From NCBI GenBank assembly GCA_018436725.1, contig JAHDKT010000026.1, forward strand, positions 1 through 64,000: a DNA stretch of 64,000 nucleotides. The letters run 5' to 3'. Source of the DNA: Synergistaceae bacterium. GTDB lineage: Bacteria; Synergistota; Synergistia; Synergistales; Aminobacteriaceae. The notes under the pieces are model-generated. The model did no database searches and was not told where the DNA came from. It saw only the letters and a program-made list of their open reading frames with translations. A program made the translations under genes and the position numbers. This document shows positions 1-53,775 of this stretch, in pieces (the stretch's first letter is position 1; every line of letters starts with the position of its first letter).

Positions 1-542
1 CCGAACAGACTCGAAAGCTTTACCATATGATTCGCCCCCTTGGTGGATTTGAGATCTTGTTGCTTTGTGGTGAATCAATGATATCTCAAAAACACCGGGG
101 GCTTTTTAATTTTCCTCAAAACCTATTTTGGACAAGAGTGAATTATTACAGAAAAAATAGGGAAAGCAAACACAATCTTCAACGGCTCATCCAGGGGGAC
201 AAATATTTCTTCCCCTTGGATACGCGTTAAAACATGCATACATTTTCTTGCCGAGTACCTCCAGCAAGAAAAACTTTTCCCGGAAAAATATTATATTCCT
301 TCTTAATCAACAAGTGCTATTTCCCATTCTATACAATCTACAGAGCTATACTACACCAAATAAAAGATAAAAAGAAGCTTTCAAGACGAAATTAGAGACT
401 AATGAATTAGAACACATCATTTGATTGTCCGGTAAAAAACACAAATTTCAAAAAGCGCAAAACTATCGCTTTCCATGAACACCGCCAACTTAGGCCCGAG
501 TTGACGTCCCTTCAGGAAATGCTCGAATTGGCTTCGATCCGA

Positions 543-1586
543 TCAACCGGATTCAGAGCTGTAGCCAGCTTTCTTCTGCCCTCTTCCGCGAATCGCCTCT
601 TTCTTCTCCTCCGCCCCGCCTCCGAACCCGCCGCTCAGATACCCCTTCACCGTGAAGTCCGCCTTCCGGCACTCCTGGACGAAACGGGTCGTCCAGTCGC
701 CCGCGAGGCGCTGGAGGGCGTGGCGTTCTCTTCGGAGGCATCGGTTCCGCAGAGGGTGGGAGGCGAACTCGGTGACGACGTTGAAGAGGGCGTAGGCGTT
801 CTCGCCGAACTCTTCGCAGGCGCGATCGCAGAGGTCTTCGGCGTGCTGTTTCAGCGCTTCCCACTCCGCAAGCAGCGGCGCGTTCCCCTCCTTCTGTTCG
901 GGTGCGCGGAGCAGCAGAACTTTCTGGAAGAGCGGGAGGATATCGGCGCGGGGAACCCCGCACGCGCGCAGCGTCTCCAACGATTCGAGGAGGCTGTTTC
1001 TGAGTTCTTTAAGAGAATCCTTCGCCACGAGGAATGTGATCTCTTCCTTTATCTCCTTGCGGGAGTGGGGGTAGCTGAAGCGGATGACCGAGCGGGGGAG
1101 GATCAGACCGTTGCCGCACACCTTGCGGAAGTAGCCGACGTTGAAGGAGAGCGCCCGCTGCCCGTTGTAGCTGTTGGTGACGCGGACGAAGGGGCCGAAT
1201 ACGTCCTTGGCGCCTCCCTTGGGAAAAAAGCTGAAATCCGATGCGGTGCGCTTGTGTTGAAGGTCGATGTAGCAGTGACCTCCGCTCTCCGGAGCGTCCA
1301 CTTTGTGCAGTTCCCACTCGTCGGGCTTCGTATGGGGAAAGACCGCCGAGGCGCACCGGTACGCCCAGTCAAGGGCCTGCCGGTTGTCCACCAGGCGATA
1401 GTCGCGCCCGACCACGCCGACCACGCGGTTTTCCCGCGTGTTGACGATGGCCTTCTTGTCGCGCACGGCAAGGCGCTTCGCCGCCCCTCCCTCGCCGATT
1501 TCCGCGAACACGGGAAACGCCTCCACCGGAAACAGCACGTCTTCAAGAGCCGCCAAACGGGACACGGTCTTCACTCCTCGCTTCAA
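543..1586 (-). CDS. DUF932-like phage/plasmid-associated protein (function unknown)
   Basis: 347-aa ORF. The block ...RVTNSYNGQRALSFNVGYFRKVCGNGL... resembles the conserved core of the DUF932 family as I recall it. Last gene of a three-gene minus-strand operon, with only 35 nt to the upstream RHH gene. Confidence 0.45.
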   Translation of the reverse strand: MKRGVKTVSRLAALEDVLFPVEAFPVFAEIGEGGAAKRLAVRDKKAIVNTRENRVVGVVGRDYRLVDNRQALDWAYRCASAVFPHTKPDEWELHKVDAPESGGHCYIDLQHKRTASDFSFFPKGGAKDVFGPFVRVTNSYNGQRALSFNVGYFRKVCGNGLILPRSVIRFSYPHSRKEIKEEITFLVAKDSLKELRNSLLESLETLRACGVPRADILPLFQKVLLLRAPEQKEGNAPLLAEWEALKQHAEDLCDRACEEFGENAYALFNVVTEFASHPLRNRCLRRERHALQRLAGDWTTRFVQECRKADFTVKGYLSGGFGGGAEEKKEAIRGRGQKKAGYSSESG

Positions 1587-1620
1587 GTCGAATTTCGCCT
1601 TCTACCAGAGGAGGAGCGAA

Positions 1621-1803
1621 TCAGTCGATCCGCCCCTCCTCGATGAACCTTTCTATCAGTGCGCGCACAACGGAGTTCGCCGAATACATCGCGCCCGGAC
1701 GCTCTTCGTTCAATGTCTCCACCGCCCTGTACAGGTCGCGTTTCATCTTCTCGGGAAGACGGATTAAAAGAGTGGTGCTGTCCTTGGCGTACTGATTCGG
1801 CAT
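1621..1803 (-). CDS. ribbon-helix-helix (Arc/MetJ/CopG-type) DNA-binding protein
   Basis: 60-aa ORF with an N-terminal beta-strand (TLLIRLPEKMKRDLYRAVE), typical of RHH repressors. Sits between the Ro60-like gene and the DUF932 gene with short gaps. Confidence 0.55.
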   Translation of the reverse strand: MPNQYAKDSTTLLIRLPEKMKRDLYRAVETLNEERPGAMYSANSVVRALIERFIEEGRID

Positions 1804-1817
1804 GGCGCTTCCCCCCT

Positions 1818-3335
1818 CTATTCGAGGGCGCGGACAATCTCCACGAGGTCTCCGTACCCGCGGATCGAGTCGGCGATGAACGAAACGATGCGATCCGACC
1901 AGCCGTAACAGTAAAAAGTGTTTTCGTCTTCGGGCGGAACCATGGCGAACTGGTACGGAGAGACGTTTATCACGAAAACACGGGTTTCGGCGTTGACCTT
2001 CCTGCGGTACCCTTTAAGAACGTTGAAAAACGGGGAGCCCGTGTTCTGCTGCTCGTCGGTGACGATAACGATGGTGTCGCAGAATACGCGGGAAGCGATC
2101 ATCTCGCGTACTGAAACGCCGGTATTGGTGCCTCCCGAGGCTTCGATCCGCGATGCGGCGGCGAGGATGGACTCTCCGGGCCGCGTTGCGAAGGGGATGG
2201 ATTCTGTGTTGAAGAGGCGGATGAACGTGTCGCCTTCCGACTTCCGCAGTATGGAGAGCGCGAGCAGCGCCCCGGCTTGGAGCATCTGTCCGCTCATGGA
2301 GCAGGAGATGTCGAGCAGAACGGCTGTTCTTCCGGGAATTTCGGGAAGAGCGTCCGCGGAGAGTTCGACGGCCTTTTCGAGGGCGCGGCGAAGCCAGGGA
2401 ACGTCGACCATTGACCATGCGGAGGCGAAACGGAACGGGAGAATCTTCGCTTTGCGGATGGTTTCCGGGTTGGAAAAGCGTTCCTCGATCCCTGGCTGAG
2501 GTTCCGCTTGTGTGAAGACACCGTTGCGGGCGAGGGTGGCGAGGTGCCGCAACAGGGAGAACAAAGTCATGTCCGGCAGAAGCGCCCTCCAGAGTTCGGG
2601 CGACATGCTCTCCACCGAACCGGTGAGCGCGTTCCACGGAATCCGCCCTGCGCGGATCAGTTCGACGGCTTCGGAGAGATTCTCGCGGACATCGAGCCTC
2701 TTGAGCTTCTCGAATGCGGCAATGCGCGGAAGCAGACGAGGGTCGGGGCCGTCCGGACCGCTTTTTCCGGCGATGTACCGAAAGAGGGCCTGCACGGTTT
2801 CGTTCCCCGGCTTCGGGTGATAGACGCGGAGCAGATCTTTCAGAGAGTAGCCCCGTCCTTCCCCGCTGTATTTGAGCGCCTCGTACTCGTCGAGCCGCTC
2901 CAGACGCGCGCAGGCGAGCTTCTTGACCAGCCTGCCGCCCTGCCCTCTTCCCAGGGATTGCAAGGCGAGGGTGAACTCGACAAGATCGGCGACGGTGATG
3001 ACGACGCGGTCGAAAACGAGGGCGAAACGGCGGGGGGCGGCGAGGGAGAGCACGGCGAGGCCGATCAGGGGCTGCAGGCGCATGAACCCCTCGTTGCGGG
3101 CATAGACAAGGGCGCGGGCCATGAAGTCGGGATTTTCGTCGGCGGCGAAACGGTGCAGCGCAAGCGCGTGCTCGCCCAGCATCTCCTCGGACGCGTAGAA
3201 AACGCCGGAGATTGTGTTGACGAGCAGCATCCGGAGGTACTCCTCCCGCCAGTCGCGCTCGAACGCCGGATATTTCTCGCAGTTCAGCGGAAAAGCCGCG
3301 GTTCTCCCTTTCAGGACTTCCAGCGCATGCCCCAT
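1818..3335 (-). CDS. rsr: Ro60-related TROVE-domain protein with C-terminal vWA domain (Rsr-like)
   Basis: Long ORF; start set at the internal ATG (MGHALEVLKGRTAAF...). The N-terminal roughly 350 aa are TROVE-like and the C terminus carries a MIDAS-type motif (LLDISCSMSG = DxSxS) of a von Willebrand A domain. This is the Ro60/Rsr architecture. Confidence 0.7.
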   Translation of the reverse strand: MGHALEVLKGRTAAFPLNCEKYPAFERDWREEYLRMLLVNTISGVFYASEEMLGEHALALHRFAADENPDFMARALVYARNEGFMRLQPLIGLAVLSLAAPRRFALVFDRVVITVADLVEFTLALQSLGRGQGGRLVKKLACARLERLDEYEALKYSGEGRGYSLKDLLRVYHPKPGNETVQALFRYIAGKSGPDGPDPRLLPRIAAFEKLKRLDVRENLSEAVELIRAGRIPWNALTGSVESMSPELWRALLPDMTLFSLLRHLATLARNGVFTQAEPQPGIEERFSNPETIRKAKILPFRFASAWSMVDVPWLRRALEKAVELSADALPEIPGRTAVLLDISCSMSGQMLQAGALLALSILRKSEGDTFIRLFNTESIPFATRPGESILAAASRIEASGGTNTGVSVREMIASRVFCDTIVIVTDEQQNTGSPFFNVLKGYRRKVNAETRVFVINVSPYQFAMVPPEDENTFYCYGWSDRIVSFIADSIRGYGDLVEIVRALE

Positions 3336-3566
3336 CGCGATCACCTCTTGCCGTGAATTTTTGAACAGGTATCCGAAGAAAAAAAGGAACCCGCGAGGAA
3401 TATTGGGCGAGGTCAACCTTGTGGGCGGGAAACCCGCGCATACAAGGCTATTTCGAAGTATCCCCGCCCGGCGCCTCAACGAATTCCGCAAAGAGTATAT
3501 AGGGTATATTAATACCTGTCAAGGGGGGAGGAGAAATTTTTCTCCACTCCCCAGGCAGAAAAAAGC

Positions 3567-3595
3567 GTTGACACTTCCGTACAGGAGCCGTACAA
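3567..3595 (+). promoter_or_regulatory. sigma70-like promoter (TTGACA-17 nt-TACAAT) upstream of the tacA-like antitoxin gene
   Basis: ttgaca cttccgtacaggagccg tacaat lies about 20 nt upstream of the ATG at 3616. Both hexamers are consensus. Confidence 0.5.
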
Positions 3596-3615
3596 TCATC
3601 GCGGAGGTGTTCCTC

Positions 3616-3903
3616 ATGGAGAAAACATCAGTGAAAGAAAGCCGGATCGAAGCCCGCATTCCCTCCGATCTCAAGAAACGCCTCGCCAGGGCTGCGGCCC
3701 TGCAAGGGCGCACCCTCTCCGACTTCGTCGTCTCCGCGGCGGCGGAGGCCGCGCGCCGCACCATCGAAGAAGAAACGCTGCTGCGCCTGTGCGAAGAGGA
3801 CAGCCGTGCGCTGGCGCTCGACCTCTGCGCCCCCGAAAGGGAGCCCTCCCCCAGGCTGCGTGTCGCAGCGGCCCGCTACGATGCTGCGAAGCAGCCGGAA
3901 TGA
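3616..3903 (+). CDS. tacA: DUF1778-family RHH antitoxin (TacA-like)
   Basis: 95-aa product with the DUF1778 pattern R..DLK..L..AA...G.TLSDFVV..A. The stop overlaps the downstream toxin start (ATGA). Confidence 0.8.
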   Translation: MEKTSVKESRIEARIPSDLKKRLARAAALQGRTLSDFVVSAAAEAARRTIEEETLLRLCEEDSRALALDLCAPEREPSPRLRVAAARYDAAKQPE

Positions 3904-4397
3904 GCTGGAGATGCGTCCCGCTTTCGTCCGCGCATGATCGCAAGACGTTCGCGTGCGGCGTGGCGGAGCTTGACGAGTATTTTCGAAATCGTGCCGGGCA
4001 GGATCAGAAGAGAGGCTTCGCCTCGGTCTACGTCGCCGAATCCGAAACCGGCAAGAAGGACGCCGTCTGCGGCTACTACACTCTCTCCGCAGCAGGCGTC
4101 CTTCTTGAGAATCTTCCCGAGGCTCTGAAGGCAAAAATGCCGAGATACCCCTCCGTCCCGGCGGTTCGACTTGGAAAACTCGCCGTCTCGCTCGACTGCC
4201 GGGGGCAAGGTCTTGGAGAATATTTGCTCATCGACGCAATACGCAGAAGCCTGTCCGCCGCTGTAGGGTGGACTCTTTTCGTCGTGGACGCCAAAGACGA
4301 GAGCGCCCGGTGTTTTTTCCTGCACTTCGGATTCACTCCCCTTCCCAAGGAAGAGCGAACGCTCTACCTTCGGCGCAAGGATATCGAAAAATTGTAG
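3900..4397 (+). CDS. tacT: GNAT-family acetyltransferase toxin (TacT-like)
   Basis: The start overlaps the antitoxin stop. The N-terminal motif HDRKTFACGVAELDEYFRNRAGQDQKRGFASVYV matches TacT/AtaT-type GNAT toxins. A GNAT core with LGKLAV...GQGLG follows. Confidence 0.8.
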   Translation: MSWRCVPLSSAHDRKTFACGVAELDEYFRNRAGQDQKRGFASVYVAESETGKKDAVCGYYTLSAAGVLLENLPEALKAKMPRYPSVPAVRLGKLAVSLDCRGQGLGEYLLIDAIRRSLSAAVGWTLFVVDAKDESARCFFLHFGFTPLPKEERTLYLRRKDIEKL

Positions 4398-4530
4398 CCG
4401 TCTACCAATGAGCTTTCAATACCTTCCGCGCCGTCGTACGCGCGCAAGCCGTTCGGCGTTGTCGTCGTAGTAGCCGAGGGTTTGCGAGTCCATGCGAGAC
4501 CGTCTCCGCCTGCGCTGCCGCTTTCGATCG

Positions 4531-5519
4531 TCAGGAATCCCCTACATCTTCGACGAACTCGTAGCTTCCGTGCCACTCGCCGTAGCTTTCGGAGAAGATG
4601 CCGTTCCTCTCGGCGCCGGCATACTCTTTCCGGCCCGGAAGAATCCGGACGGCGACTATTCCCTCCTCTTCCTGGCGGAGCACCCCGGCATGCACTGCAG
4701 CGACCGCAAGGCTCGAGTCGTCGGTGTAAACGCCGTCTCCCCAGATGTTGCCGTGCGCCGTTCCCCGAACGCGGAAACGGAACACTTCGCCGTTCCGTCC
4801 TCGGAAGGATTCCAGATTCCCGGGATCGTCCGGAACCGTTCCATCCGCAACGGAAATGTCCGAGGAAACTTCGACTCCCAGCTCCCTGAGGCGATCCTTC
4901 GCGATCCCTTCAAGGAAGTCCCCCGTGTTTCCGCTCTGCTCCAGATAGGCCGTATACGCCGCTATCGCCTTCTCCTTTTGTCCGGTGCGCTCCATAGCCC
5001 TGCCGTAGCCGATGAAGTGGTCGAGCAGGTGCGCCGTCTTCGGGTCGGGAATGACTTCGTCGTAGAGGGCCGCAGCCTTCTCCCACATCTCCTCCTGCTC
5101 GTACAGAAAGAGAAGGCGCTGTTTCACAAGGGGGAGTCCGGGAGTGGAAAACATGGAGAACTTGTCGTCCAGTACGCGGGAGCCCGGGTAGCGCGCCAGA
5201 TACTGCTCCAGCAACGCGACGGCGTCCTTGTTTCTGGGCGGATCGAACGCCTGCATGTACATGTTGCTCAGCATCCAGTAGGCCTCTTCGGCGCGCCGCA
5301 CGCGGGGAGCTTTTTCGATAACCTCCAGGAAGAGAGGCTCGATTCCTTGAACATCCTGATCGTCCTTGGCGGCTATCCGATTGAAGAGCGTCCTCGCGAG
5401 CTTCTGCTGCTCGATAAGAGGCAACTCCTCCGCGAATACGCTCCCGACGCCCCACGATACCGAAACCGCCACGAAGAGCAGAGAGAGCGCGATGCAGATG
5501 AACACACGCAATACCCTTC
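4531..5519 (-). CDS. secreted TPR-repeat protein with C-terminal LCCL domain
   Basis: GTG start preceded by GGGAGG. Signal peptide (RVLRVFICIALSLLFVAVSVSWG). TPR-like helical middle region. C-terminal LCCL-like block (GTAHGNIWGDGVYTDDSSLAVAAVHAGVL). Confidence 0.6.
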
Positions 5520-6256
5520 TTTTCACACAAAACACCTCCCTTTCAGCCTGAACACCCCTTGCACACCGGTATTCTTCGCTCCCCAACCTGTCTTTCCAGC
5601 AAAAGCCCGGAATCCCTTCACTGCGGGCGGGGATGAACGACACTTCGGAGCCCGCGCCTTGCGGACAGCTGAATAGTACGATTTTTCCGACGAAAAATCA
5701 ACAGATTACGCGCAGATGCATACTCTTCATGGTATTTTCGACAGTCTTCTTGCAACACACCGCCCAAATTCTTCTGAATCGAGTAGGAGGGAGCGGCTAG
5801 CCCCCGTCCTCTCACACCACCGTGCGTACCGTTCGGTATACGGCGGTTCACGGAGTTTAACCTGTAGACAGAACCGAACTCGGACTGAACAGGCCTTGGG
5901 ATTCGAAGTATTGGATTCCGAAGGCTTTGTTTTATTGGGGCGTTCGCGCCAACCGCCAGTATCCTTTGCGCGATCCGCTGATTTTGACGGCCCATTCATA
6001 CGGTATCCCTCGGGCCATCAGCTCCCGCCGTCGTGTCTTTGTCTTTAAAAAACGTCATATCCGGTCATACTCAAAAGAGAATCACCCTCGATATGGAGAA
6101 CAAGCGTTGCCCATGCGACCTCGCGCCCAGACCGTCTTTCCTCGTCACGCGGCGCAACAGGCGCAAGCCGATCCTCTCGAAGAGCAGTTCCGCATCACCC
6201 GACTCGCGGTCCACGTGGAGCCTCCCATCCGGGATATAGTCATATGCAATTCGTCT

Positions 6257-8134
6257 TCACCTCATTTTCTTTTCGAAGCGGAAGAAATAATCTCCGCCTA
6301 CCATATCTTCAGGCGAATCGGGGTCTTTGTGCCGGGGATTGAAGAATTCCACTATGTGAAAGCCGCATCGATTCACATAAAAATGAATATTTCGCTTTTC
6401 AAAATACGGGGTAACGGTTTCCCAAACTTTTGTGTCAGGATGCAGCTTTTCAACTTCTTTCCAAATAGCCTGTCCCACACCACGACTCTGCGTTCCATAT
6501 TTTACATAGAGGAAATCAAGATGATTGCGTTGTGCTTCTTTGTCGATTACAACGATAGCTCCACCAACCATTTCACCATTCACAACCGCTTTGTAAGCAA
6601 ATGCCCCTTTTTTTGATAATGCAATGTCGATGTCCTTTTCAGGAAGTATCTCCACATCCAAGTCAGAAACCTCTGCCGCTATTCCTTTTTGAAAAGCCTC
6701 TTGCATATCCTTTTTGTATTCTGTCAAATCTTCTTGACTGACAGGTACCAACTTAAAATTCATATATGATGCTCCTTTTACAGGATACTGATACTTTTTT
6801 CGTTTTACGATAAGGAACACTGCTGTAAGCACAACCGCCATCACTTCAGCTGCAACAATGGAAATCCAAATACCATCAATTTGCCAAATCATTGGGAGAA
6901 GCAAAACAGAGCCGAGTTGGAACACCAATGTACGCAAGAAAGCAATCAAGGCGGAGGTTAGTCCGTCGTTCAGAGCAGTAAAGAAACCTGAACCGAAAAT
7001 GGCAAAACCCATAAAGGGAAATGCAATGGCGAAAATACGGAATCCGGAAACAGTCAAATTCATCAGCTCTTTGTCGTAACCCACGAATATTTGAGCCAAC
7101 GGAACAGCAAGCAGCTGTGCGGCAGTTACCATAACGAGCCCACCAACACCAAGCAGTCGAAGGCTTTTTTTTAAAAGTCCCTTGAGTTCGTCGTGATTTC
7201 TTGCTCCATCGTGATAAGCGAAAACAGGTGCTACACCTACAGAGTAACCTATAAAGGCAGCCGAAAAAACCATGCTGACAAACATCATGACACCATAAGC
7301 TGCCACACCGTTTTCCCCGGCGAATTTCAGAAGCTGTATGTTATAGAGCATTCCCACGATACTCATGGAAACATTGTTCATGAATTCGGAAGATCCGTTG
7401 GTACAAGCCTTGAAAATTGTCTTGCCATAAAAGCTGGTTTTGCCGAGGCGAAGAATACTGCTGTTTTTCCGAGAAAAATAGACAACAGGAATAATGCCGC
7501 CTATAAACTGGCTGACAGCCGTAGCAATAGCCGCTCCTGCCAGCTTATATTCCAGCGGAAGAAGAATCACCAAAAAAGCATCCAAAACCATATTGGCAAC
7601 ACCGGCCGCACCCGTCACGAAAAGGCCGAACCCAGGCTTTTCCGCCGCTACAAAAAAGCTTTGAAACACAAGTTGCAACACAAAAAACGGTAAAGTTGTA
7701 AGAATGATTCGTCCATAAACAACACAATGCTCAAGCAGCTCTTCTTTTGCACCAAGCAGCGCGGCAATGGGACGAATAAATACAAATCCCGATATGGTGA
7801 AGAGGACACCAAGAACAAAAGCCACATACACAAACAGGGAGAAATATCTGTTCGCCTTTTCCTTGTCACCCGCACCGAAGGCGTTGGCAACAATGGCGGT
7901 TCCTCCGGCGCCGAACATGAAGCCAACAGTTGCCACGATCATCAAAAATGGCATGATCAGATTGACTGCGGAAAATGCCACTTTGCCTGCATAATTCGAG
8001 ACAAAGAATCCGTCCACCACACTGTAAATGGATGTAAAAATCATCATAGCAATGGACGGAAGTGTAAATTTTATCAGCTTACCGTAGGTGAAACGATCCG
8101 AAAGCTGTATCGTCATGATTTCCTGCCAAACCAA
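6257..8134 (-). CDS. MATE-family efflux transporter fused to a C-terminal GNAT acetyltransferase domain
   Basis: 625 aa. About 12 TM helices typical of MATE in the first 440 aa. The C-terminal roughly 170 aa has the GNAT fold signature (VGGAIVVIDK...RGVGQAIWKEVE). Lower-GC patch. Confidence 0.7.
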   Translation of the reverse strand: MVWQEIMTIQLSDRFTYGKLIKFTLPSIAMMIFTSIYSVVDGFFVSNYAGKVAFSAVNLIMPFLMIVATVGFMFGAGGTAIVANAFGAGDKEKANRYFSLFVYVAFVLGVLFTISGFVFIRPIAALLGAKEELLEHCVVYGRIILTTLPFFVLQLVFQSFFVAAEKPGFGLFVTGAAGVANMVLDAFLVILLPLEYKLAGAAIATAVSQFIGGIIPVVYFSRKNSSILRLGKTSFYGKTIFKACTNGSSEFMNNVSMSIVGMLYNIQLLKFAGENGVAAYGVMMFVSMVFSAAFIGYSVGVAPVFAYHDGARNHDELKGLLKKSLRLLGVGGLVMVTAAQLLAVPLAQIFVGYDKELMNLTVSGFRIFAIAFPFMGFAIFGSGFFTALNDGLTSALIAFLRTLVFQLGSVLLLPMIWQIDGIWISIVAAEVMAVVLTAVFLIVKRKKYQYPVKGASYMNFKLVPVSQEDLTEYKKDMQEAFQKGIAAEVSDLDVEILPEKDIDIALSKKGAFAYKAVVNGEMVGGAIVVIDKEAQRNHLDFLYVKYGTQSRGVGQAIWKEVEKLHPDTKVWETVTPYFEKRNIHFYVNRCGFHIVEFFNPRHKDPDSPEDMVGGDYFFRFEKKMR

Positions 8135-8745: not shown

Positions 8746-9189
8746 TTATAAAGCACCGATTCGCTTACGAAAACAATCCGCATATTTTTCCATCAGACGA
8801 ATGTATGTGTTGATTTCTTCTGTCGACCAAGATTCAAAAGCCTGTACTTCCGCTTCGTAGAGCTTCGCCACAGTCTTCTTCACATACTCTTTGCCCTTTT
8901 CCGTCAGGACGATTTTTTTTGCTCTGCCTGTGTACTGTTCCAGAAATAGAATGCCATCAGCCTCTAAACCTCGAATAGCCGAGTTCACCGTCTGTTTGCT
9001 GATTCCCGATTTCTTATAAATATCGCTGAGCAAACAAATTTCGCCCGCGTCGTAGATTGTATACAACACAATAGAGACGCTGTCCGTAATGCCCAGCTTT
9101 AACGATGCCTGATGATACAATGCTTCCATTTCAGAAGTCAGATAATTGATTCGATGAATTTCGTCAAATCTCTTTTGATTCATCACCAT
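8746..9189 (-). CDS. MarR-family transcriptional regulator
   Basis: 147 aa with a winged-HTH core (SQLRILLYL-type: SDIYKKSGISKQTVNSAIRGLEADGIL). Followed by a palindromic operator. Confidence 0.8.
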   Translation of the reverse strand: MVMNQKRFDEIHRINYLTSEMEALYHQASLKLGITDSVSIVLYTIYDAGEICLLSDIYKKSGISKQTVNSAIRGLEADGILFLEQYTGRAKKIVLTEKGKEYVKKTVAKLYEAEVQAFESWSTEEINTYIRLMEKYADCFRKRIGAL

Positions 9190-9196
9190 ACCTCCA

Positions 9197-9236
9197 AGTA
9201 CGATTTCGTACCTTTATTATAGTACGAAATCGTACT
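9197..9236. promoter_or_regulatory. candidate MarR operator: two inverted copies of the 14-bp palindrome GTACGAwwTCGTAC
   Basis: agtacgatttcgtac at 9197-9211 and gtacgaaatcgtact at 9222-9236 flank the spacer ctttattata, immediately upstream of the MarR start codon. Confidence 0.5.
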
Positions 9237-9276: not shown

Positions 9277-9700
9277 GTGGAAAATATCCCACGAGCCGAG
9301 TCGAATGCCGGAGGCGAGGTCTTGGAGATTATTTTGCTCATCGACGCCATACGCAGAAGCCTGTCCGCTTCCGTTGGTTGGACTCGTTTCGTCGTCGACG
9401 CACAAGACGAAAACACCCCCGACGCCCCACGATACCGAGCCCACCACAAAGAGCAGAGAAAGCGAGATGCGGATGAACACACGCAATACCATTTACTACG
9501 CGATACACCTCCCTTTTCGTCCGGAGCACCCGATGCGCATTACCATACATTGCTCCCAAGCGCGTCTTTTCAGACCTGCAATCGAAACTTTTTCACTCCT
9601 GCCGGGGTCAACAACACTTCGAAACTCCTTCTTGCGACACTTAGCAGACGGTTGAAAATATGATTTTTGACGAAAAATCAATCCTTCTTCCTTCGAGTAT
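9277..9700. repeat. diverged partial duplicate of upstream DNA (about 4180-4296 joined directly to about 5446-5720)
   Basis: Nucleotide and peptide-level similarity. LLIDAIRRSLSASVGWTRFVVDAQDE here versus LLIDAIRRSLSAAVGWTLFVVDAKDE in the toxin gene. PDAPRYRAHHKEQRKRDADEHTQY here versus PDAPRYRNRHEEQRERDADEHTQY at 5446-5530. The atgatttttgacgaaaaatcaa motif recurs at 9660 and 5683. Confidence 0.7.
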
Positions 9701-9775
9701 TATCGCCCCGATACATACACTTGCCGACATTAGTACGACTTCAGAGCGAAACTCTCGCCAAGCTTCTTCCGAAAA

Positions 9776-9818
9776 CAAAGAAGCGCCGGATCTCGGGCGA
9801 GATCTCCGGCGCTTCTTT
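9776..9818 (-). terminator. hairpin terminator downstream of ahpC
   Basis: aagaagcgccggatctc-gggc-gagatctccggcgcttctt perfect stem followed by a T-rich tract on the minus strand. Confidence 0.5.
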
Positions 9819-9837
9819 TCTCTGTGTTTTTCCAGAT

Positions 9838-10404
9838 TTACAGCTTGCCTACCAGATCGATCCCCGGAGTCAGGGTGTCCGCCCCGGGCTTCCACTTGGC
9901 GGGGCAGACCTTGTCGCCGTACTTGGCGACGAACTGGGCGGCCTGCACCTTGCGGAGCAGCTCCTCGGCATTGCGGCCTATACCCATGTCGTGGATCTCG
10001 TACGCCTTGATCACCCCTTCGGGATCGACGATGAAGGTGCCGCGAAGCGCCTGTCCGTCGCTCTCGACCATCACGCCGAAGAAACGGGAAAGAACGCATG
10101 CGGGGTCGGCGAGCATGGGGTACTGTATTCTCTTGATGGTCTCCGACGCGTCGGCCCACGCCTTATGCACGAAGTGCGTATCGGTGGAGACGGAGTAGAT
10201 TTCGCAGCCGATCTCCTTGAACTGCTCGTAAAAATCGGAGAGATCGTCGAGTTCCGTGGGGCAGACGAAGGTAAAGTCCGCGGGGTAGAAGAAGAAGACT
10301 CCCCATTTACCAAGAACGGAATCCCGTGTAACTTCAGTGAACTTCCCGTTGCGATACGCCTGAACTTTGAATTCCTCCAAACGACGTCCGATCAAATTTT
10401 CCAT
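9838..10404 (-). CDS. ahpC: peroxiredoxin (alkyl hydroperoxide reductase subunit C)
   Basis: 188 aa. Peroxidatic Cys motif FTFVCPTE and resolving Cys in the C-terminal VCPAKW, both typical 2-Cys AhpC features. Confidence 0.9.
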   Translation of the reverse strand: MENLIGRRLEEFKVQAYRNGKFTEVTRDSVLGKWGVFFFYPADFTFVCPTELDDLSDFYEQFKEIGCEIYSVSTDTHFVHKAWADASETIKRIQYPMLADPACVLSRFFGVMVESDGQALRGTFIVDPEGVIKAYEIHDMGIGRNAEELLRKVQAAQFVAKYGDKVCPAKWKPGADTLTPGIDLVGKL

Positions 10405-48789: not shown

Positions 48790-49045
48790 AAAAAAGGAGG
48801 AGACCGCCGGAATACGGTCCCCTCCTTCCGCAAGTACAGGCTTCCGGAAAAAGCGAAAAGACCGCCTCTCACCCGCGTGATCGACGAAAAAACAGGCTTT
48901 CGGCAGGTCTTCCGACTCTCGGTCATCCTACTCCCGCGTCTTCCCGCCCGAGGGCAGTGACGTCGTGCGGTTTCGTCCCGATTACGGCGGCGGGGCCGTT
49001 CCGGTTTCGCACCGGATTCCCTTCTCCGAAATCCTTCGATATTCG
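48790..49045 (-). ncRNA. cobalamin (B12) riboswitch with terminator expression platform, leader of btuB
   Basis: Minus-strand leader reads AGGGAATCCGGTGCGAAACCGGAACGGCCCCGCC...CGTCACTGCCCTCGGGCGGGAAG...GGAAGACCTGCCG. These parallel the E. coli btuB leader blocks (AGGGAATCCAGTGCGAATCTGG...ACACTGCCATTCGGTGGGAAG...GAAGACCTGCCG) and the B12-box. A ggagg(g)gaccg/cggtctcctcc hairpin plus TTTTTT follows at 48790-48830. Confidence 0.7.
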
Positions 49046-53584: not shown

Positions 53585-53775
53585 AAAGAGGAGACCGCAC
53601 GGGCCTCCTCGAATAAACACCAACCTACAGGGTGATACATGCCCGCGCACAACACCCGTGCGCTCTCCGTGATTTTCTGGCTTCCGAAAAAATTTTCGGT
53701 TACAGTGGCGGGGCCGCTCCGGACTTGCACCGGATTACTCCGCGGAGAACGCGTATTCAATTGCATTGAATTCTA
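53585..53775 (-). ncRNA. second cobalamin riboswitch with terminator, leader of btuFDC-exbBD-tonB
   Basis: Minus-strand leader contains AATCCGGTGCAAGTCCGGAGCGGCCCCGCCACTGTAACCG....CGGAAGCCAG (B12 box GCCACTG). A gaggaggcc...cggtctcctc hairpin plus TTTTTTT lies just before the RBS. Confidence 0.65.

Follow-up and report, generated by a model that had tools for sequence, protein, structure and literature searches.

The locus considered here raises the question of whether a Ro60-type gene, the small gene that follows it and a gene of the DUF932 family form an RNA surveillance module with a Y RNA of its own, and whether such a module is mobile. The stretch of DNA analyzed (hereafter the window) comprises 64,000 nucleotides (nt) of contig JAHDKT010000026.1 (GCA_018436725.1) from a Synergistaceae bacterium, and an earlier reading of its letters (the sequence-only reading) had described an operon of rsr, a ribbon-helix-helix (RHH) gene and a DUF932 gene, had taken the trio for a possible mobile-element-borne or defense-like unit, and had suspected a Y RNA in one of the intergenic regions. 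The locus is, in our judgment, probably a chromosomal operon for an Rsr/Y RNA ribonucleoprotein (RNP) of a Synergistota-type clade, to which the DUF932 gene is likely incidental. The genes in question are as follows.

1818-3335, minus strand: rsr, a Ro60-type protein of 505 amino acids (aa) with TROVE and vWA domains (Pfam; clade profile against solved structures)
3342-3347, minus strand: ribosome-binding site of rsr, GAGGTG (sequence)
1621-1803, minus strand: 60-aa clade-specific partner protein (conserved small open reading frame, ORF, after TROVE)
543-1586, minus strand: DUF932 protein of 340-347 aa (Pfam PF06067)

On the minus strand the genes thus stand in the order rsr, 60-aa gene, DUF932 gene, as first described, with the 14-nt gap between the rsr stop and the 60-aa ORF upheld; the gap from the 60-aa gene to the DUF932 gene is 34 or 55 nt, depending on the start chosen (TTG 1586 for 347 aa, or GTG 1565 for 340 aa, the latter being called in the twin contig L009).

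The product of 1818-3335 is an Rsr/Ro60 orthologue. Its Pfam scores lie above the cut-offs for both TROVE (PF05731, 35.1 bits vs. 23) and vWA_Ro60 (PF25045, 33 bits vs. 27.7), and a profile of 26 clade members aligns over nearly its full length with the structures 1yvp (E 1.7e-41), 9nen (8.5e-41) and 2nvo (1e-36), covering residues 36-530 of Xenopus laevis Ro60 in the first case and matching Deinococcus radiodurans Rsr in the last; the Ro60/TROVE-vWA assignment made from the letters is thereby borne out. The clade profile also matches PHROG 850 (‘RNA-binding protein’, E 5e-31), and a vWA motif of the metal-ion-dependent adhesion site type (DxSxS, here DISCS), GGT and TDEQQN are invariant in the clade. 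The 254 homologues found, many of them named TROVE or Ro60, fall into tiers: Aminobacteriaceae and Synergistaceae metagenome-assembled genomes at 95-99% identity, a second, also largely Synergistota-type tier at 53-68%, and a third at 42-48% with Paenibacillus, Brevibacillus, Cohnella, Thermoanaerobacterium and Syntrophomonadaceae. The mechanical ORF extends from a TTG at 3491 (557 aa) and swallows the RNA described below; the real start is placed at ATG 3335 because the homologues begin there. As a separate observation, the TROVE gene of L177/L178 (4347-5985) is frameshifted near codon 304, and in its place the gene caller gave a vWA fragment and, in antisense, an ORF of 392 aa.

A Y-like RNA had been suspected in either 3336-3566 or 1-542, and it is the former that holds one. 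A covariance model restricted to the helical core of the RNA (closing helix H1, an asymmetric loop and a second helix, H2; hereafter R1) has a single match in the window, 3377-3489 on the minus strand (44.9 bits, E 2e-11), which lies 41 nt upstream of the rsr ATG at 3335 and on the same strand, well inside the published distance of <4 kb from rsr. The region 1-542 gave no R1 match and only insignificant Rfam matches. The parts of the candidate are listed below.

3377-3489, minus strand: Y RNA candidate of ~105-113 nt, YrlB-like, with no tRNA-like domain (model R1, covariation, minimum free energy, MFE)
3474-3487 with 3386-3398, minus strand: closing helix H1 with one bulged U (core pairing)
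3462-3469 with 3405-3412, minus strand: helix H2, GGGG with CCUC (core pairing, also MFE)
3417-3447, minus strand: apical hairpin of 31 nt (fold)
3379-3385, minus strand: U-run (U7) after H1, ending 43 nt before the rsr ATG

Folded alone, the RNA adopts the predicted structure (MFE -49.1 kcal/mol, z = -3.4). Atop its core are only the 31-nt hairpin and ~15 unpaired nt, with no D or T arm; likewise, the T-loop motif GTTCRANYC was not found in the RNA, ARAGORN reported no tRNA-like gene in the window, and Rfam, both at gathering thresholds and at E <= 10, returned no Y RNA, YrlA or tRNA match in 1-6500. Rfam misses the RNA because neither arm is present, and for want of a tRNA-like domain it is filed as a YrlB-like Y RNA rather than as YrlA. 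Separately, the 5' strand of H2, CGGGCGGGG (3462-3469), has a possible alternative partner in the 3' half of the apical hairpin, 3424-3430 (CCCGCCC), for which a duplex test gave -17.9 kcal/mol; the duplex search preferred CCCGCCC over the homologous H2 partner CCUCGCCC, the homologous pairing, which is also the MFE, was kept, and the alternative is possible as a second conformation of the window RNA.

The RNA is conserved well beyond the window. When the DNA upstream of TROVE was aligned in seven relatives, a conserved block emerged that reads TTTGCGGAAT.CGCGAGGCGC....GGGG.T.CTTCGA, followed by a variable insert, TTCCTCGCG and a T-run. Helix H1 (12-15 bp) forms in every sequence between the 5' and 3' blocks, and H2 (7-9 bp) between the segment ending in GGGG and the CCUC-containing one, with an asymmetric loop between the two helices and a top module that ranges from 20 to >200 nt. 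Among 23 core constructs, 82.4% of cells pair, compared with 69.6% after shuffling, and 13 of the 22 pairs change on both sides; none of 500 shuffles reaches the observed score, and slid registers are far off. R1 was then searched in 88 sources (the window and 87 loci, the latter designated here by L numbers) and gave 101 matches at E < 0.01. Of 102 matches placed relative to a TROVE gene, 97 share its strand and precede its ATG by 7-580 nt (median 41 nt). At least one near match occurs in 75 of the 87 TROVE loci, from Synergistota and Firmicutes, and 22 of those 75 have two. Four further TROVE loci have one R1 match each, three of them just upstream of TROVE and the fourth (L173) reaching into the beginning of a TROVE ORF that was called too long, and 79 DUF932 loci without TROVE (~0.55 Mb) contain no match at E <= 1. 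Across the 101 distinct sequences, 88.7% of cells pair (71.0% when shuffled), 17 of 21 pairs show compensatory change, and the covariation score is 0.494, as opposed to 0.172 in shuffles and 0.08-0.13 with slid partners.

Further loci tie this core to known Y RNAs. The Paenibacillus-type copies occur in two forms, with a T-arm (GGCAGGTTCGACTCCTGC) and without one, mirroring the published YrlA and YrlB (PMC4201824). In the Firmicute loci L016-L091, up to three Y RNAs stand in tandem upstream of TROVE, as in L062 (5539-5670, 5683-5800 and 5804-5936), the upstream copy of which matches Rfam YrlA (RF02553) at 44 bits, below the gathering threshold of 69. There, H1, loop and H2 (ACCGAGGCGCCUGGACGGGUUAC ... 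CCUGUCCGACCUAUUUCCUCGGU) fall on YrlA's 5' and 3' stems, and the core is therefore equated with the stem module put forward by Chen et al. as the binding site of Rsr; because the YrlA model reaches only 44 bits on one copy, RNAs of the L062 type would go unannotated at the Rfam threshold. The size of the RNA also varies with gene content, albeit in few and phylogenetically confounded lineages: operons with RtcB (L001, L007, L008 and L010/L011) have larger Y RNAs, mostly in two to three copies (L001 has one of 159 nt, and one in L010/L011 has a T-arm), whereas RtcB-less operons (the window, L014/L172/L179, L015 and L173) have a single short Y RNA of 92-127 nt with no tRNA-like domain. As an aside, L008 carries a tRNA-Leu(CAA) gene (9116-9199; ARAGORN and Rfam, 52 bits) inside its operon of Y RNA, rsr, small gene and RtcB, between the small gene and a 195-aa ORF.

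Some features of the Rsr and RNA evidence weigh against this picture. The 3' strands of the seed sequences were located by duplex energy, which favors pairing; the large alignment was fitted by R1 itself; and the ends of the Y RNA are predicted. At the protein level, the NCBIfam equivalog RNA-bind_Rsr (NF041674) scores 64.1 bits where its cut-off is 900, and the protein is for that reason assigned to a divergent Rsr clade rather than counted as an equivalog by NCBI’s rule.

Upstream of the RNA lies what seems to be the single start of the unit, in which two elements overlap.

3494-3522, minus strand: sigma-70-type promoter, TTGACA (3522-3517), 17-nt spacer and TATACT (3499-3494) (promoter scan, 11/12)
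3503-3516, minus strand: inverted repeat GGTAT-TAAT-ATACC in the spacer, a candidate operator (sequence)

H1 begins 6-7 nt past the -10 box, no other promoter is predicted between the Y RNA and the rsr ATG, and the rsr ribosome-binding site and ATG follow 32-44 nt after U7. The block formed by TTGACAGGTAtAtAtATACC and TATAcT, i.e., CTTGACAGGTAtAtAtATACC(N3)TATAcT, is kept in 11/11 Synergistota-type loci, the TROVE proteins of which are only 55-65% identical, and it occurs once in the window, where none is expected by chance. A second promoter-plus-palindrome copy (TTGACAGGTAGATATATACC...TATAAT) was also seen at L014 4524-4560, ~1.3 kb upstream of the Y RNA promoter and preceding a 170-aa ORF, which may be a second target of the same regulator.

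A candidate for a protein that reads this palindrome is the 60-aa product encoded behind rsr. It is a genuine, conserved partner of the Rsr clade: its gene begins 3-25 nt after the TROVE stop in every context read, and it varies less than Rsr itself, with 67-97% identity across relatives, is represented by only 16 clusters among 5.8 billion proteins (all >=76% identical), and is not encoded in the Firmicute TROVE loci. This part of the initial description stands, but the RHH label attached to it was matched by no profile. No Pfam RHH family was hit (only DUF2274, at E 0.025), and a PDB profile search and Foldseek found nothing. The protein has the pattern of a hydrophobic strand (LLIRLPE), helix, loop and helix, and its N-terminal part aligns by hhalign with the RHH N-terminus of TacA at P 0.0065, called not significant. 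The case for an RHH repressor is further weakened by a single-sequence AlphaFold2 model, which is helix-helix-helix (predicted local distance difference test score of 71), and by an hhalign comparison with Arc that spans 41 columns, strand and both helices included, at P 0.08; the RHH fold is thus a candidate that no profile confirms. The chances appear roughly even that the 60-aa protein is a repressor binding the promoter palindrome.

Alternatively, the 60-aa protein may be a subunit or chaperone of the Rsr/Y RNA particle and not a DNA-binding repressor. Its constant position 3-25 nt behind rsr fits such a role, near-overlapping genes being suggestive of coupled translation, as do its conservation above that of Rsr and its failure to match RHH profiles. 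These points are countered by the end-to-end alignment of its LLIRLP strand-helix-loop-helix with Arc, albeit not a significant one, by the alignment of its N-terminal part with the TacA RHH, and above all by the conserved palindrome, which co-occurs with the 60-aa gene in 11/11 loci and needs a binding protein. The particle role is accordingly regarded as unlikely, although it is the main alternative.

The position of the RNA invites a second alternative, namely that 3377-3489 acts in cis, as a leader of the rsr mRNA (for example an attenuator or a site of autoregulation by Rsr binding), rather than as a free Y RNA. It lies within the rsr 5' untranslated region, 43 nt before the ATG, which makes a purely cis role conceivable and is a point against the Y RNA reading; the last copy keeps a median distance of 41 nt from the ATG across loci, H1 with its U-run is terminator-like, and no separate rsr promoter is predicted between RNA and ATG. 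Nevertheless, the core aligns with the Rsr-binding stems of YrlA, a trans-acting Y RNA; many loci have two to three tandem copies, some of them T-armed, for which an attenuator would have no need; and the YrlA of Mycobacterium smegmatis, which is likewise 5' of rsr, co-precipitates with Rsr (PMC4201824). An exclusively cis-acting element is quite improbable on this evidence, and the cis-leader and free Y RNA roles are in any case not exclusive.

The third gene of the operon is a different matter. The DUF932 assignment itself is sound (PF06067 at 49.6 bits vs. a cut-off of 23, profile positions 2-214 of 227), as had been claimed, and the fold matches phage DUF932, TIGR03299 and DUF945 models, with a score for the TIGR03299 subfamily below its cut-off (37.6 bits vs. 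110.7). To our knowledge, no DUF932/TIGR03299 protein has a known function; no paper was found that covers both DUF932 and TROVE, and the DUF932 papers found give no function. The idea of a recurring rsr-RHH-DUF932 trio is not borne out, however, as TROVE-DUF932 adjacency is confined to one lineage (the window, L009, L012, L092 and L175/L176), in which the DUF932 proteins are 90-97% identical. Among 80 metagenomic loci with DUF932 relatives, TROVE and the small gene are present in L092 alone, which is of the same lineage (94% identical). In the remaining 79, which come from many phyla and are 47-55% identical, neither TROVE nor the small gene nor RtcB occurs within 6 kb; the neighbors vary and include ADP-ribosylglycohydrolase, WYL regulators, GmrSD, an Eco57I-type methylase, SNF2 and UvrD helicases, VIT-vWA and RhuM. 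The third position is held by RtcB in L001, L007, L008, L010, L011 and L180 (split in the last), by an isochorismatase-like gene in L015 and by an amidohydrolase in L177, and nothing follows the 60-aa gene on that strand in L014, L172 and L179; a tblastn search with the RtcB of a sister locus found nothing in the window. In relatives, an Hma-type system (DUF499/HmaC, DUF7680, a DUF1156 methylase and an SNF2 helicase) lies directly downstream of DUF932 (L176 11187-20993; L012 8843-13515), with DUF499 frameshifted or split in L012/L175, and because the Hma genes come next in L176, DUF932 is placed on the seam between the rsr operon and a defense island. Most likely, then, DUF932 is a lineage-specific arrival, co-transcribed to judge by its position, that sits where relatives hold RtcB.

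It might instead be a functional third component that has taken over from RtcB, serving the Rsr/Y RNA particle as enzyme or effector. Two observations favor such a link at the expense of an incidental one: DUF932 is tightly linked, on the same strand, with a gap of 34-55 nt and no predicted terminator or promoter in between, and it is intact in five assemblies (the window, L009, L012, L092 and L176) at 90-97% identity. It also occupies the exact position of RtcB in sister operons, and polar residues (D, H, N, R, K, C) are invariant at many positions of its subfamily, as in enzymes. Yet all carriers belong to one narrow lineage and therefore amount to effectively one evolutionary event, the 79 loci with 47-55% identical proteins lack TROVE, small protein and RtcB within 6 kb, the third position of other sister operons without RtcB is empty or taken by unrelated genes, and no fold or sequence link from DUF932 to RNA enzymes was found. 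A working third component is thus improbable, and the fuller version, in which DUF932 replaced RtcB as working partner in concert with the loss of the tRNA-like domain of the Y RNA, is distinctly so. If true, it would give the large, uncharacterized phage/plasmid family DUF932 its first functional handle, either as RNA-directed enzyme or as RNP effector.

The genomic setting bears on the remaining alternative, a mobile or defensive origin, and two of its features had been placed on the wrong side. The AT-rich stretch 1-542 (35-41% GC), said to flank the operon upstream, actually lies downstream of DUF932, and the tacAT promoter, said to lie downstream of the operon, is upstream of rsr and diverges from it.

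3616-4397, plus strand: tacA-tacT toxin-antitoxin cassette with its own promoter at 3568-3596 (promoter scan; Pfam TacA1 and GNAT)

With TacA1 at 72.5 bits (cut-off 21) and Acetyltransf_7 at 29.8 bits (27), both members of a TacAT pair are recognized by Pfam; the cassette is a neighbor that stands outside the rsr module. The genes within 5 kb are tacAT and, farther on, an LCCL/TPR protein confirmed by Pfam, with no search aimed at RtcA or RtcR made. The tacAT insertion (window 3529-4536) lies 7 nt upstream of the -35 box shared by rsr and the Y RNA, is shared by the window and L009, and is missing from L012, L013, L092 and L176; relative to L012, L013 and L092, a second insertion consists of a low-GC block of ~5 kb from the LCCL gene to 10673. 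At the other end, homology between the window and its relatives stops at ~583-591, just past the DUF932 stop. By comparison, rsr keeps a syntenic chromosomal order (Band_7, LCCL, rsr) across related Synergistota genomes, the complete 2.5-Mb relative L176 reading Band_7, LCCL, rsr, 60-aa gene, DUF932 and Hma-type system. Because the rsr neighborhood is constant while the flanking cassettes vary, the rsr unit itself is not mobile; it is mobile pieces that surround it, tacAT upstream and, in relatives, a defense island downstream. A 60%-GC block once entertained as a GC-rich island was rejected, since synteny shows the GC-rich DNA to be native chromosome and the AT-rich stretches to be insertions.

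That the whole rsr/60-aa/DUF932 block is a mobile or anti-phage defense module is highly improbable, despite the tacAT cassette on one side, the Hma defense system on the other side in relatives, the phage/plasmid affiliation of DUF932 and a preprint's report that a DUF932 gene was under selection following exposure to phage (bioRxiv 10.1101/2025.06.20.660599), given that the unit stays in the same Band_7, LCCL, rsr neighborhood while flanking cassettes come and go, that no integrase, repeats or tRNA border was seen, and that PADLOC matched no family to Rsr, the 60-aa protein or DUF932.

Several further observations concern the insertions and more distant parts of the window. An Rfam match to group II intron domain V/VI at 5778-5848 (minus strand; 36.7 bits vs. 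a gathering threshold of 40, E 1.4e-4) has no adjoining reverse-transcriptase ORF; position 5778 marks an edge of inserted DNA, because homology to L092 ends exactly there. The low-GC block (38-47% GC, from about 5543/5778 to 10673), which is not in L012, L013 or L092, includes a 625-aa MATE-like ORF (6257-8134, minus strand) with a C-terminal part that by eye is acetyltransferase-like, a candidate label. Within the same block, the Band_7/LCCL intergenic region plus the 5' part of LCCL recurs as an 82% copy at 9408-10284 and a 3' piece of tacT as an 85% copy at 9301-9418, and the junction is mosaic. Lastly, two cobalamin riboswitch matches were recorded, one of full length (48885-49045, minus strand, 97.2 bits) and one partial (53673-53736, minus strand, 36.6 bits).

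The preferred interpretation of an Rsr/Y RNA operon can be assembled into a working model, in which Rsr-RNA binding, termination with read-through and repression by the 60-aa protein are all proposals from sequence. Transcription would start at ~3487-3489 from the single sigma-70 promoter (3522-3494, minus strand), and the first ~110 nt would fold into the Y RNA, its ends pairing as H1, followed by the asymmetric loop and then H2 (GGGG/CCUC). These elements would correspond to the Rsr-binding stem module of YrlA, with a simple hairpin at the top in place of the tRNA-like domain. As H1 with U7 resembles an intrinsic terminator, many transcripts may end as free Y RNA, while read-through would express rsr, the 60-aa protein and DUF932, partial termination thereby setting the ratio of RNA to protein. 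Rsr, with its TROVE ring and vWA domain, would bind the Y RNA stem and, by analogy with Deinococcus and Salmonella, may take part in the surveillance or decay of structured or damaged RNA. The 60-aa protein, for its part, would bind the spacer palindrome and autoregulate the operon, taking the place of RtcR. DUF932, of phage, plasmid or defense-island origin, would have landed at the operon's 3' end, on the edge of a variable defense region and in a lineage without adjacent RtcB, and it is probably no working partner of Rsr; its restriction to one lineage is observed, and the lack of a functional link is deduced from it and the evidence above. Neither an adjacent ligase nor a tRNA-like module is part of the unit, whether through loss or because they were never there, and in place of RtcR a small repressor appears to be used. 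The module first proposed is thus probably two-thirds real, in that rsr, the small protein and a Y RNA belong together and DUF932 is incidental.

Bacterial Ro60/Y RNA particles are known but have been studied in very few species, and the Rfam Y RNA model depends mostly on the tRNA-like domain. Given that a two-helix model finds candidates upstream of 75/87 TROVE loci, including tRNA-domain-less forms that Rfam misses, many Y RNAs of bacteria probably lack annotation. That a Y RNA may be reduced to an Rsr-binding stem and a hairpin bears on the purpose of the tRNA-like module. Likewise, the 60-aa partner and the conserved palindromic candidate operator suggest a regulatory circuit other than RtcR. 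The link to DUF932 is probably incidental, but were it real it would have consequences for a large orphan family. Of the by-products of the analysis, the most useful are the core model of the Y RNA and the pair of candidate operator and candidate repressor.

Comparison with known systems places the locus among them. The 60-aa protein resembles the Arc/Mnt/CopG RHH repressors in size, in its strand-helix-helix pattern and in the palindromic putative target inside a promoter, and differs from them in having no significant sequence or fold match and an inter-helix loop that is ~6 residues longer. The DUF932 protein agrees with the phage/plasmid-like DUF932/TIGR03299 proteins in its Pfam score above the cut-off and in its fold matches, and departs from them in its adjacency to rsr, which is unique to the window lineage. 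With regard to the RNA, the absence of a tRNA-like domain is shared with YrlB. YrlB-type RNAs are lineage-specific. The two closing helices and loop of the window RNA correspond to the 5' and 3' stems of YrlA (RF02553), and the RNA shares the strand of rsr at a distance below 4 kb, in line with the published criterion (PMC4201824); unlike YrlA, it has neither D-arm nor T-arm.

The Salmonella rsr-yrlBA-rtcBA operon, which is induced by damaged tRNAs through RtcR (PMC4201824; PMC7790460), and in Salmonella Typhimurium is controlled by RtcR/sigma-54, likewise joins an Rsr orthologue and Y RNAs on one strand in one transcription unit, and sister loci of the window also carry RtcB (PMC7790460; PMC4201824). 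The window differs in that its single Y RNA precedes rsr, RtcB was not found in it (tblastn), its promoter is of the sigma-70 type with a palindromic candidate operator, a 60-aa protein follows rsr, and DUF932 stands in the place of RtcB. In D. radiodurans, a Y RNA tethers Rsr to PNPase for structured-RNA decay (PMC4201824; PMC7790460), and the expected mode of action would by analogy be that of Rsr/Yrn1/PNPase, with a Ro60 ring on the Y RNA stem and the other end of the RNA recruiting an effector; in the window, however, the putative effector-binding module is a plain 31-nt hairpin with ~15 unpaired nt. Finally, at the M. smegmatis rsr locus the Y RNA carries an RNase P-cleavable tRNA-like module that the window RNA lacks, yet the arrangement is the same: a Y RNA lies immediately 5' of the Ro60 orthologue and partly inside an over-extended ORF annotation (PMC4201824), as it does within the 557-aa ORF here. 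Seen against these systems, the locus is a variant Rsr/Y RNA operon.

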